Part shown: one piece after another, positions 27,933 through 33,665 of the stretch
How the letters are laid out: every line of letters starts with the position of its first letter
Position numbering within the stretch: the first letter of the stretch is position 1
Assembly: GCA_002292815.1 (NCBI GenBank)
Contig: DBBX01000027.1
Span: 64,372 to 128,371 of the forward strand
Direction: 5' to 3'
Length of the DNA: 64,000 nucleotides
From: Thiotrichaceae bacterium UBA973
GTDB lineage: Bacteria > Pseudomonadota > Gammaproteobacteria > Eutrophobiales > Eutrophobiaceae
The notes under the pieces: model-generated
Databases searched by the model: none
The model's input: the letters and a program-made list of their open reading frames with translations, nothing else
Told to the model about the DNA's origin: nothing
Made by a program: the position numbers and the translations under genes

Positions 27933-28802
27933 TCAATCATCCTTTTTTTGATTTTGACTATAAATAAGAAATGTTATTTGCTCTGACAATAAACCTATGA
28001 GGAAAATAATTACTGATGTTAAAAATATGAATATACCCATATTAGTAAAACGCCCATGATAAAAATAAGTATATCCATAATAGGATAAACCTATAATAAA
28101 AAGACTTAAGCTAGCTGGAAAAAATATTTTTAATGGTGAATATAGTGCAGTAACTCTAAAAATGATTAATAAAAACTTAAACCCGTCTTTAATTAATTTA
28201 ATATGACTATTACCTGTTCTTTGCTCGCAAGATATTGGAACATATTTGATACTGTAGCCGGATCTAAACAAGGCCATAGTGATGGTAGTTGGATAAGAGA
28301 ATCCATTTGGCAACAGATATAAAAACTGTTTAAATACATCTGCTTTTACTGCTCTAAAACCCGAGGTCAAGTCATCTATTTTATGTCCTGACATATAGCT
28401 AGCTAGTTTATTATAAAATACATTAGCGACATACCTTGGAATGCTGGCGTGTGTTATTCGTTCCCGAGCACCAATAACCATATCGTGATTTTCATCAATG
28501 CCGTTGAGTAAACTTTTTATATCATCTGGTCTGTGCTGGCCATCAGCATCCATGAAAACTAGTATTTCACCTGTTGCAAACCGCGCGCCTGATTTTATTG
28601 ATGCGCCATTACCCTTCGAGTATGGATGATTAATAACTTTCACAGCATACTTATTACATATACTTAATGTATCGTCATCAGACCCATCATTAACAATGAT
28701 AATTTCGGCATCAGCATATAAGGATGTTAATTCAGGCAACAATATTTTCAAAGAAGCCGATTCATTCTTTGCTGGTAATATAATACTTAGGCTTTTATTC
28801 AT
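27933..28802 (-). CDS. polyprenyl-phosphate hexosyltransferase (GtrB/ArnC/DPM1-like GT2) with C-terminal TM helices
   Basis: 'LSIILPAKNESASLKILLPEL...IIIVNDGSDDDT...FMDADGQHRP' is the DPM1/GtrB signature. Two C-terminal TM helices, as in GtrB. Confidence 0.75.
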   Translation of the reverse strand: MNKSLSIILPAKNESASLKILLPELTSLYADAEIIIVNDGSDDDTLSICNKYAVKVINHPYSKGNGASIKSGARFATGEILVFMDADGQHRPDDIKSLLNGIDENHDMVIGARERITHASIPRYVANVFYNKLASYMSGHKIDDLTSGFRAVKADVFKQFLYLLPNGFSYPTTITMALFRSGYSIKYVPISCEQRTGNSHIKLIKDGFKFLLIIFRVTALYSPLKIFFPASLSLFIIGLSYYGYTYFYHGRFTNMGIFIFLTSVIIFLIGLLSEQITFLIYSQNQKKDD

Positions 28803-28818
28803 AATGTTTTAAATAAAT

Positions 28819-30693
28819 TTAAGGAACATTTAGCAGTTTGAGCTGCTGCTCAGCGTTTTTATATAGAATAGCGTCATTATGTAACTTCAACAAAACGTAT
28901 TCAAAATCTTTTTTTGCTTGTGGTTGATTTCCAATATTTAAGTGAGAAAGACCACGATAATATATAGAGTCAATATGACCTGGATTAGCAAGATTAACCT
29001 TTGTCAATAATTTAATCGCCATATTAAATTCATTTAATGAAAAATAACTTATGCCAAGATAGTAATTTGCTTTTTCATGTTCTGGATAATCTTTAATAAT
29101 TGCCTGAAAATCATTTTTTGCCATATCCACGTTGCCAAGATTATTATTAGCAACCCCTCTATTTAACAAGACTTCAATATTATTAGGTGCCTTGAGCAAC
29201 GCAGAATTTAAATCCTCGATTGCGCCATTTAAATCTCCCAAATAAATTCTAGCTGACGCTCTTCCATTTAAAGCATAGGCATTATTCTCGTCTAGTTGTA
29301 GAACTGAAGAATAATCCTCAATGGCTTTGTTGTACCATTTTTTCTTCATTCTGTAATCGGCTCTGTTGCTAAGAGCTCTGTAATTTGATTTATCAACATT
29401 TATTGCATGTGACCACAATGTTTCCTCATTTTCCCATATTAAGATTTGTCTTTTCGTACTGTTTACTAATGCACATAATATAATTACGTATACTAGTAGC
29501 ATAGAAAACAGTAGCATTATTTTTTTATTTTTTTCTTGTTTAAAACTTATTCTCAATCCTTTTAAGGTCATATAGCTCAAAACAAAATAAAACGGCATTA
29601 AAGCAATGTAGGCATACCGATCTGCCATTATCTGTGGGCCACTTTGGGAAAAACCGAGAACCGGAAAGATAATCACTAAATAAATTAGCAAAAAATATAA
29701 TGGCCAATGATATTTTTTTCTTATCAGAAATGCAGTTACAAATACGAATATAAAAACAAAGAAATGCGCATAAAACTTAATATCATAAAAATTCGTTTTC
29801 CCTAACAAATATAATGGCGATAAATTTGAAGGATATAATGTATTCAATAAATACATATTAAAACCGTAACTTGCCTGCAGAATTCTATCTACCAGAGTTA
29901 ATTTTTCCCAAGAAACCATCGCTCCTGATGTATTCGCCGCAAAGACACCTATCAATGCAAATAAGAAAGATATAATGATAAATGGGATCTTGGTTTTTAT
30001 ACTATTCATCATAAAGGCAACTGTGGGCTTCGTGGAATTAAGAATTGCTATATCTACTAGAACTAACACCACAGGAAAAGTAATTGCCCATGCCTTACAT
30101 AACAATGACAGGAAAAAAGAACAAAAAGAAATAATATATAATTTCTTCTTAAATATATTACTTGATGCGAGTACTTCTTTATGAAACCTGAAATGTAGAT
30201 ATGCAAGAAAACTTATTAACAAAAATAATGCACTGAAGACATCTCTTCTTTCAGTCACCCATACGACAGACTCTACTCTTAATGGGTGTAATGAAAAAAT
30301 TGATGCCCCAACTAGAGATGATATTATTAAATTTAAATTATTCGAAGATAATTTATTAAACAATCTTAAAGCCGAATAGATCACCAGCATTAACAGCACA
30401 GCATTAATACTGTGCAGTAATATATTAGTTAACCTGTAACCATAACTTTCCAGACCCCAGACATGGTAATTCATGATGAAAGACAACCATGTTAATGGTT
30501 GATAATGACCACCCAGAGTGTTCGTAAATGCCCAAAGCATGCTATTAAAGCTAAACGACCTGATATGCTCGTTATTAACAATAATTTCTCGATCATCCCA
30601 TACAAAATCGTACCCTAATGACGACTTAAAAATAAAAAACGCCAAACAAAATAAAATAGTGCTAGAGAGAAGAGTAATGGATTTTGTTTTCAC
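28819..30693 (-). CDS. GT-C glycosyltransferase with C-terminal TPR repeats (TMTC/TfpW-like), paralog 2
   Basis: 624 aa. ~11 TM helices with first-loop 'GYDFVWDDREII' (DD acidic motif). C-terminal ~200 aa of TPR-like repeats ('AYALNGRASARIYLGDLNGAIEDLNSALLKAPNN...'). Confidence 0.6.
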   Translation of the reverse strand: MKTKSITLLSSTILFCLAFFIFKSSLGYDFVWDDREIIVNNEHIRSFSFNSMLWAFTNTLGGHYQPLTWLSFIMNYHVWGLESYGYRLTNILLHSINAVLLMLVIYSALRLFNKLSSNNLNLIISSLVGASIFSLHPLRVESVVWVTERRDVFSALFLLISFLAYLHFRFHKEVLASSNIFKKKLYIISFCSFFLSLLCKAWAITFPVVLVLVDIAILNSTKPTVAFMMNSIKTKIPFIIISFLFALIGVFAANTSGAMVSWEKLTLVDRILQASYGFNMYLLNTLYPSNLSPLYLLGKTNFYDIKFYAHFFVFIFVFVTAFLIRKKYHWPLYFLLIYLVIIFPVLGFSQSGPQIMADRYAYIALMPFYFVLSYMTLKGLRISFKQEKNKKIMLLFSMLLVYVIILCALVNSTKRQILIWENEETLWSHAINVDKSNYRALSNRADYRMKKKWYNKAIEDYSSVLQLDENNAYALNGRASARIYLGDLNGAIEDLNSALLKAPNNIEVLLNRGVANNNLGNVDMAKNDFQAIIKDYPEHEKANYYLGISYFSLNEFNMAIKLLTKVNLANPGHIDSIYYRGLSHLNIGNQPQAKKDFEYVLLKLHNDAILYKNAEQQLKLLNVP

Positions 30694-30825
30694 ATTAATT
30701 TCTTATTATATTAATTTTTATGACGCCAGAATCTAATAAATTTTTAACAACATAAATAATTGTTTTCATTTGGTCTGGCTTAATTATAATTTCTTCAAAT
30801 AGAACTGAAAACGCCTAATAGCATG

Positions 30826-32924: not shown

Positions 32925-33350
32925 TTATCTACAATTAGAAGGTCGCAACTTAGATGGCACCGAACCAGTGTTACATAACCAACTTATAGAACCACCGGTA
33001 TCTGAAGGTGATAAAAGAAGAGTAGAGTTATCAGCGCTATCTACTTTTGTATTATAAGTGATAAGAATAGTACCGCTAGCACCAACTGTGACAGTTTTAA
33101 CCGCATTACCGTTAATACTTGCAGCAGCCCCAATTCCAGCCATAGCATTTGAACTAGGCCAAGCACCCATAGAACCATAATATTCGGACACACCCGTTTT
33201 AGCAGCACCGGCCAAACCTAGACCTTCAGAGACGTGTGCACGCTTGGTATAGTCTTGATATGAAGGGATAGCAACTGCGGCAAGAATACCGATAATTGCA
33301 ACAACAATCATTAATTCTATGAGGGTAAAACCCTGTTGTGTTTTTTTCAT
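32925..33350 (-). CDS. pilA: type IVa major pilin (PilA-like)
   Basis: '[34 protein letters not shown]' is a class III signal with G-1/F+1/E+5. Start refined to the internal ATG at 33350, which has a GGAG RBS 8 nt upstream. C-terminal disulfide loop C...C ('[17 protein letters not shown]'). Confidence 0.85.
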
Positions 33351-33468
33351 CTTTTTTAACTCCTTTGAGTTGGTTTTATTTAATAACAATCTTTGCAAAG
33401 ATTACTTAAAATTTGATACTCCAATTATATTTGGATAGTACGCCATTTTGAACTGCGTGTAAGTGTAC

Positions 33469-33484
33469 TGCAGAATCTATGCCA
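33469..33484 (-). promoter_or_regulatory. sigma-54 (-24/-12) promoter of pilA: TGGCAT-N5-CTGCA
   Basis: Reverse complement reads TGGCATAGATTCTGCA with exact GG-N10-GC spacing, ~120 nt upstream of the pilA ATG. TGTC/GACA repeats at 33591-33616 are candidate PilR enhancer sites. Confidence 0.5.
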
Positions 33485-33665
33485 ATTAGTTTTCAATTAA
33501 ATATTATCCATAACTCTTTGTATATTATGAATAATAATTGACTATGCTAATTAAATTACAATCTGACAACACAAAACTATTAACATTCTATGTCCGAATG
33601 TGACGTAAATTGTCATATCAACTGTAGCAGAAGAAATTTTTAATAATCAGATTATTAAAAACATC

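Follow-up and report, generated by a model that had tools for sequence, protein, structure and literature searches.

A probable pilin O-glycosylation module behind pilA in the type IV pilus locus of Thiotrichaceae bacterium UBA973

What is the function of two large membrane proteins that are encoded just behind a type IV pilin gene and are followed by a putative sugar-donor synthase? The question is raised by a locus in Thiotrichaceae bacterium UBA973 (assembly GCA_002292815.1), on a stretch of contig DBBX01000027.1 (positions 64,372 to 128,371; 64,000 nt) that was analysed as a whole and is called the window here. In this locus pilA is followed by the genes for P1 (634 aa, 30826-32730) and P2 (624 aa, 28819-30693) and then by a gene for a family GT2 glycosyltransferase (27933-28802, hereafter the GT2), all genes of the module being located on the minus strand of the 64-kb window. 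A preliminary description, made from the sequence alone, had listed a sigma-54 promoter, pilA, a strong terminator, two proteins of about 630 aa and a GT2 on one strand. All of these elements are present, and the coordinates, the Asp-Asp strings (IYDDYF and VWDDREI) and the pilin strings that it quoted are correct. Judging from sequence and from analogy with TfpW, the pilin-modifying enzyme of Pseudomonas aeruginosa, we consider it probable (roughly 0.68) that the module is a pilin O-glycosylation system in a type IV pilus locus, being of the TfpW type and using a different sugar donor. This is the best-supported reading because the linkage to pilA and other pilus genes is conserved both when the GT-C-type enzymes, P1 and its relatives, and when the GT2 are taken as the starting point.

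Conserved linkage to type IV pilus genes

A scan of one genome per species gave 80 loci from Gamma- and Betaproteobacteria, in which neighbouring genes were then counted by tblastn with the window proteins. Their carriers include Acinetobacter tianfuensis, Exilibacterium, Undibacterium, Variovorax, Dechloromonas, Methylohalomonas, Novimethylophilus and Gallionella, as well as many metagenome-assembled genomes. A pilA gene was found no more than 700 bp upstream of the GT-C gene and on the same strand in 67 out of 75 loci. An orthologue of the GT2 (53-77% identity) was found no more than 600 bp downstream of the GT-C gene in 50 out of 69 loci, and in most of the others it was located within a few kb. 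The genes past the GT2 vary between loci; the constant neighbour is pilA, and pilS and pilR are kept upstream of it in many loci. One GT-C copy is present in 42 loci, two in 21 and three in 2, so that pilA is repeatedly followed by more than one GT-C gene. Many relatives (L005, L006, L010, L011, L026, L036, L086 and others) have two tandem pilA copies before the GT-C gene, and across loci the number of pilins does not follow the number of GT-C genes.

The reciprocal survey, in which a GT2 profile was run against metagenome contigs, gave 58 loci with at least 2.2 kb of flanking sequence on one side. A GT-C gene, pilA and/or pilB-pilC-pilD were present within 6 kb in 47 of these, and the other 11 mostly have almost no upstream sequence. 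On the strength of this result the GT2 is, as P1 is, a component of the pilus locus and not merely part of a polysaccharide cluster. The assignment of the GT2 solely to the O-polysaccharide cluster that adjoins it in the window was considered and rejected, since its orthologues track pilus loci in unrelated genomes. The link between the enzymes and the pilin that had been proposed earlier is thereby borne out by conserved synteny in both directions.

The metagenome loci also revealed a frequent alternative layout, in which the GT2 is divergent from pilB-pilC-pilD (confirmed by Pfam) and is followed by GT4, DUF354 or asparagine-synthase genes. This layout was found in L120, L127, L150, L157, L161 and about 15 further metagenome loci, with GT2s of 54-62% identity. 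In L159 and L161, a P1-like gene on the opposite strand ends the row of genes downstream of the GT2, at a distance of 4.5-5 kb from it. A glycan gene island seems to be lodged within the pilus locus in these cases.

The two GT-C proteins and the GT2

Both P1 and P2 fit a layout of 11 transmembrane (TM) helices, an Asp-Asp pair in loop 1 (within FIYDDYF in P1 and FVWDDREI in P2) and a C-terminal TPR domain. Scans of their GT-C domains with Pfam, NCBIfam and PADLOC returned nothing even at E ≤ 10, and at the same threshold the N-terminal 400 residues of each had no Pfam match. AlphaFold2 models were built from family alignments, with a pLDDT of 88.8 for P1 and 89.8 for P2 and a pTM of 0.86 for each. 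In the predicted structures, a GT-C membrane domain takes up about 400 N-terminal residues of each protein. PMTs are its closest structural matches in P1, and for P2 PMTs come just under STT3B; the protein-modifying GT-Cs Pmt4, Pmt2 and STT3 are among the matches. Structure prediction thus settles P1 and P2 as predicted GT-C fold enzymes with a periplasmic TPR domain, in agreement with the fold proposed in the preliminary description, and neither protein therefore falls outside the GT-C fold. The TPR domain that had been described in both proteins is canonical in P2, which matches no models other than those of TPR (residues 427-607). In P1, which has no Pfam or NCBIfam match whatsoever, TPR included, the domain was seen by a P1-family profile search (consensus TPR proteins, positions 410-630) and by the predicted structure, and it is divergent.

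The Asp-Asp pair of the DDX motif in the first periplasmic loop, D39/D40 in P1 and D33/D34 in P2, is invariant in each protein's own family alignment. Also invariant in both families are His, Arg and Lys positions and a Y-X6-P element, Y289..P296 in P1 and Y281..P288 in P2. At least 90% of P1-family proteins share two cysteines of the TPR-like domain, C528 and C534 in P1, which fits a periplasmic disulfide. The P1 family gave more than 1,664 matches in a word-index search. When the GT-C domain was used alone (P1 residues 1-420, 31471-32730, minus strand), 4,464 clusters at 50% identity were found at E ≤ 1e-30 and 33,070 at E ≤ 1e-3. The P1 GT-C domain is a large family without a curated Pfam or NCBIfam model.

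P1 and P2 had been regarded as two paralogs, a view that our data do not support. Across the ~208 N-terminal residues they are just 27% identical (BLASTP E = 8e-18). Their family profiles align end to end with an hhalign probability of 100%, although the P1 alignment already includes P2 among its 37 rows. Proteins orthologous to P2 with at least 52% identity were found only in the same marine clade and always in the order pilA-P1-P2-GT2. The next relatives, at no more than 38% identity, are generic TMTC-like proteins from many phyla, and one 38%-identical relative that was inspected is not pilus-linked. In a neighbour-joining tree, P2 and its orthologues group with these generic proteins, outside the pilA-linked superfamily; inside that superfamily, extra GT-C copies arose several times. 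The possibility that P1 and P2 are recent paralogs was rejected by the tree and by the contexts of the P2 relatives. As far as sequence comparison can tell, P1 and P2 are distant homologues of different subfamilies, P2 is no local duplicate of P1, and the second GT-C enzyme of this lineage was recruited from a separate TMTC-like lineage.

The GT2 matches Pfam Glycos_transf_2 (9.5e-31) and has two hydrophobic C-terminal helices, predicted to span the membrane, at residues 210-228 and 255-273. The string FMDADGQH, which holds the DxD motif, is invariant among its orthologues. Its closest PDB relatives are the dolichyl-phosphate-mannose synthase (DPMS) of Pyrococcus furiosus (5mlz, 1.5e-14), GtrB of Synechocystis (5ekp) and ArnC, and its top NCBIfam models are AglJ, dolichyl-P-hexose transferase, PpgS and ArnC, all of them under the cut-off. 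Pfam, the NCBIfam ranking and the PDB relatives all assign the GT2 to the polyprenyl-phosphate glycosyltransferases of the DPM1/GtrB/ArnC kind, as had been predicted, and it is presumed to be the synthase of the lipid-linked sugar donor.

The pilin gene and its surroundings

The pilA gene encodes a type IVa major pilin (Pfam Pilin 9.8e-24, N_methyl 9.2e-11). Its open reading frame (ORF) was listed as 32925-33398 with a TTG start at 33398, but the true start is the ATG at 33350, which has AAGGAG ahead of it, so that the gene covers 32925-33350 on the minus strand. The product is a 141-aa prepilin with a mature protein of 134 aa, and it has a class III signal peptide (G/FTLIE), an N-methylation motif, a pilin domain and a C-terminal disulfide loop, as type IVa pilins do. 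PilA is alignable with 66 pilins that adjoin the same module in other loci. It contains SPSDTGGS, one of the strings pointed out earlier, and S59, S60 and S71 in the alpha-beta loop of the mature pilin are candidate acceptors. Column 71 is Ser or Thr in 86% of the 67 module-linked pilins; this evidence for the three serines is weak, because such serines are common across type IVa pilins generally.

A sigma-54-type -24/-12 promoter element (TGGCAT-N5-CTGCA) precedes the pilA ATG by about 120 bp on the same strand. In a pattern search, TGGCATAGATTCTGCA at 33469-33484 was the sole match in the 64 kb of the window to TGGCAY-N5-YTGCW (TGGCAYNNNNNYTGCW). Since at least one match to this pattern occurred in 26 of 100 shuffles of the window, the promoter call is carried by the position of the element downstream of pilR, whose product has a Sigma54_activat domain. 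The 195 bp from the pilA stop to the P1 start hold an intrinsic terminator (32868-32902, minus), a hairpin with a minimum free energy of -17.4 kcal/mol (z = -3.97) followed by a U-run. A hairpin with a T-run is located between pilA and the GT-C gene in 56 out of 64 related loci, compared with 4-10 out of 64 once the sequences are shuffled. Hairpins that give weak expression of pilin accessory genes have been described (PMC11841053).

Farther upstream on the minus strand are pilS (37306-38928; Pfam 6TM_PilS/HisKA/HATPase_c) and pilR (35996-37303; Pfam Response_reg/Sigma54_activat/HTH_8), both scored on identical contigs. Between pilR and pilA are the genes for a methyltransferase (35197-35943, minus) and for a methyltransferase::GT2 fusion (33666-35105, minus), both assigned by Pfam and NCBIfam. 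The fusion lacks a TM helix, and its GT2 domain is AglJ/DPM1-like. Among the related loci, this insertion (33666-35943) is common to the window and L009 only; it is a lineage-specific addition and possibly provides a second donor or a route of sugar methylation. ORFs resembling pilB, pilC and pilD are located at 49843-53748 on the plus strand, about 11 kb from pilS and on the opposite strand to it, and the pilin/glycosylation operon and pilBCD are therefore separated in this genome.

Directly 3′ of the GT2 is a GT4 gene (26680-27888, minus; Pfam Glycos_transf_1 and Glyco_transf_4), as is also the case in the related loci L005, L011, L015, L065, L150 and L105. This gene is possibly an accessory of the module or the first gene of the neighbouring polysaccharide cluster. 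According to Pfam and NCBIfam searches of the window ORFs, it is followed by the gene for an ArsR-like regulator, by Wzm/Wzt and by an extended polysaccharide cluster, which comprises GT4 and GT2 genes, a GDP-mannose dehydratase and the Wzm/Wzt ABC transporter. Directly 3′ of Wzm/Wzt is a 722-aa fusion of radical-SAM and polysaccharide pyruvyl transferase domains (21503-23671, minus). The cluster also contains a 632-aa ORF without a Pfam match at E ≤ 1e-5 (18127-20025, minus) and, at 11843-15877 (minus), a VTC-domain protein, an 885-aa CotH-kinase-like protein and a DUF4956 protein. A tRNA scan and an Rfam scan at gathering score of the window (1-64000) found none.

Known counterparts, alternatives and significance

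To our knowledge, TfpW is the only characterised GT-C pilin glycosyltransferase, and its arabinofuranose donor is a rare one. TfpW, the D-arabinofuranosyltransferase of the P. aeruginosa/paraeruginosa group IV (Pa5196, PA7), is 646 aa long, has its N-terminus in the cytoplasm and is predicted to have 11 TM helices; the DDX motif of its periplasmic loop 1 is essential, and its C-terminal part is a TPR domain located in the periplasm. The enzyme adopts a GT-C fold, with ArnT as the best template, and modifies Ser/Thr of the pilin (bioRxiv 10.1101/2020.04.19.049825). The tfpW gene is directly downstream of pilA, and homologues are found beside pilA in Azotobacter, Acinetobacter, Teredinibacter, P. 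indica and Kingella (bioRxiv 10.1101/2020.04.19.049825). As far as this published description goes, P1 and P2 have the same architecture and the same position after pilA; the accessions that the preprint names were not among the cluster members checked. The preliminary description had considered the coupling of a TMTC-like pair to a type IV pilin to be uncharacterised; this novelty was overstated, because TfpW, with its 11 TM helices, DDX motif and C-terminal TPR domain and with its gene right behind pilA, is an enzyme of just this type. A GT-C+TPR pilin enzyme after pilA is therefore already known, and the new elements are the GT2-supplied donor and, in this clade, a second GT-C of different origin. 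The TfpW donor comes from a D-arabinofuranose (D-Araf) route (PsPA7_6246, DprE1, DprE2 and a GtrA-like protein), whereas the partner here is the DPM1/GtrB-like GT2. No D-Araf genes were found among the annotated window ORFs or in the flanks checked, including those of P1-like loci without a GT2. The locus also differs from that of TfpW in having no tfpX and in having a second GT-C+TPR enzyme of a separate lineage.

Eukaryotic TMTC1-4, which are protein O-mannosyltransferases, likewise combine 11 TM helices, an Asp-Asp pair in loop 1 and a C-terminal TPR domain (PMC7801869). They resemble P1 and P2 further in the cytoplasmic N-terminus, in the location of the TPR domain on the non-cytoplasmic side and in a lipid-phosphate-monosaccharide donor made by a DPM1-type GT2, which is putative here. 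The 'HP' motif of TM3 is also similar (FAVHPIHT in TMTC3, WAVHPINLT in P1 and FSLHPLRVE in P2). However, all human TMTCs match Pfam DUF1736, the TM7-TM8 loop, at E < 1e-30 (PMC7801869), whereas P1 and P2 gave no DUF1736 match at E ≤ 10. The term TMTC-like thus holds for their architecture and not for this domain. Unlike TMTC1-4 (GT105), P1 and P2 are bacterial and periplasmic, and their acceptor would be pilin rather than cadherins. The likeness to the yeast PMTs (Pmt1/2/4, GT39) is structural only, at ~10-14% identity; P1 and P2 lack a PMT or PMT_2 Pfam match and have TPR in the place of MIR.

Two further groups of systems are similar in part. In the GtrABC and ArnC-ArnT systems, as here, the gene for a GT2 polyprenyl-P-sugar synthase adjoins that for the GT-C transferase using its product. 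Unlike them, the module has no GtrA- or ArnEF-like flippase gene by a crude hydropathy screen, its GT-C enzymes carry TPR, and the putative acceptor is a protein rather than O-antigen or lipid A. TfpO/PilO, PglL and TfpM also modify pilins and are often encoded right after the pilin gene. They are O-antigen-ligase-like (Wzy_C) enzymes that transfer preassembled oligosaccharides en bloc from undecaprenyl diphosphate, whereas the logic of the module is that of GT-C enzymes with a polyprenyl-monophosphate sugar, a different fold and donor type.

We propose the following scheme for what is modified, with which sugar, in which order and to what end. PilS/PilR and sigma-54 would drive pilA, and the terminator would let a fraction of the transcripts read through, giving low expression of the enzymes. 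At the cytoplasmic face, the GT2 would use a nucleotide sugar to attach a single sugar residue, probably a hexose, to undecaprenyl phosphate, and some flippase would move the lipid-linked sugar across the membrane. At the periplasmic face, P1, with its loop-1 Asp-Asp site, would move the sugar to a Ser or Thr of the membrane-anchored pilin before assembly, while its TPR domain would hold the pilin acceptor. P2 may extend the glycan or serve further sites or proteins. By analogy with TfpW, the biological role may be to shield the pili from phages. Pilin glycosylation alters the surface chemistry of the pilus and, in P. aeruginosa, guards against pilus-specific phages.

Several observations weigh against pilin O-glycosylation by a TfpW-type module. 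The likeness of P1 and P2 to TfpW (AAM52060.1) is one of published description. The literal proline-rich motif of TfpW loop 4, Y-X6-PF-X7-P, is missing from P1, P2 and all 383 collected homologues, in which Y-X6-P alone is conserved. The GT2 reached no sugar-specific NCBIfam equivalog (106 versus 325 bits for AglJ; 50 versus 529 for ArnC). A search of the entire window for a GtrA-like flippase, by crude hydropathy, was negative: near the module, no ORF of 80-200 aa has three or more hydrophobic segments. In addition, the module directly adjoins the Wzm/Wzt polysaccharide cluster, and in many loci the GT2 orthologue adjoins pilBCD with no adjacent GT-C gene and with GT4/DUF354/AsnB-type sugar genes after it. 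Because of these pilBCD-side orthologues, the GT2 may feed another glycan too.

A broader system of periplasmic protein O-glycosylation, in which pilin is one substrate among several (with minor pilins or envelope proteins) or in which P2 alone acts on non-pilin proteins, is unlikely but deserves consideration. P2 groups with generic TMTC-like proteins of many phyla, its inspected 38%-identical relative is away from pilus genes, and eukaryotic TMTCs and PMTs have sets of protein substrates (PMC7801869). However, the P1 family, which is tightly and recurrently linked to pilA and set off from it by a terminator, looks like a dedicated accessory of the TfpW or TfpO sort, and P2 orthologues at 52% identity or more occur solely within the pilA-P1-P2-GT2 arrangement. 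It is still less probable, in our view, that the GT-Cs and the GT2 add sugars to a polysaccharide in the periplasm, be it O-antigen, capsule or the core of lipopolysaccharide, in the manner of GtrABC, ArnT/ArnC or Klebsiella GmlABC, with pilA nearby by coincidence. The module does run into the Wzm/Wzt cluster with its GT4, GT2 and GDP-mannose dehydratase genes, GT2 orthologues elsewhere have the GT4/DUF354/AsnB genes just mentioned, and some P1-like genes without a GT2 are followed by Wzx-like, DegT or GDP-sugar genes (others by unrelated genes). Nevertheless, the neighbour that stays constant, in 67 of 75 loci, is pilA and no polysaccharide cluster; the structural matches of the membrane domains include the protein-modifying enzymes Pmt4, Pmt2 and STT3; and TPR domains are typical of the protein-directed TMTC and TfpW. 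That P1 and P2 are non-enzymatic TPR scaffolds or PilF/PilW-like pilus assembly factors, as some database names have it, is very improbable given a GT-C membrane domain of ~400 residues with invariant DD, His, Arg and Lys and a dedicated polyprenyl-P-sugar synthase kept next to them.

Returning to pilin O-glycosylation, we put forward a wider proposal tentatively and with considerable doubt. The trio of pilA, one to three GT-C+TPR genes and a GT2 may constitute a distinct and very widespread pathway of pilin O-hexosylation in environmental Gamma- and Betaproteobacteria, including many Acinetobacter. Like the eukaryotic TMTCs and PMTs in O-mannosylation, it would add sugars singly, each from a polyprenyl-phosphate donor. 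In the present lineage, two GT-Cs of independent origin would split the work, either as priming and extension or between sites, and would vary the pilus surface against phages.

In summary, the module pairs an enzyme of the TfpW kind with a common donor synthase of the GtrB/DPM1 type, beside pilus genes in hundreds of species. If the proposed function is true, TfpW-type glycosylation would be no peculiarity of Pseudomonas but a modular strategy of general use. The module would then offer a bacterial counterpart of TMTC/PMT protein O-glycosylation for mechanistic study and new pilin-directed glycosyltransferases for glycoengineering.

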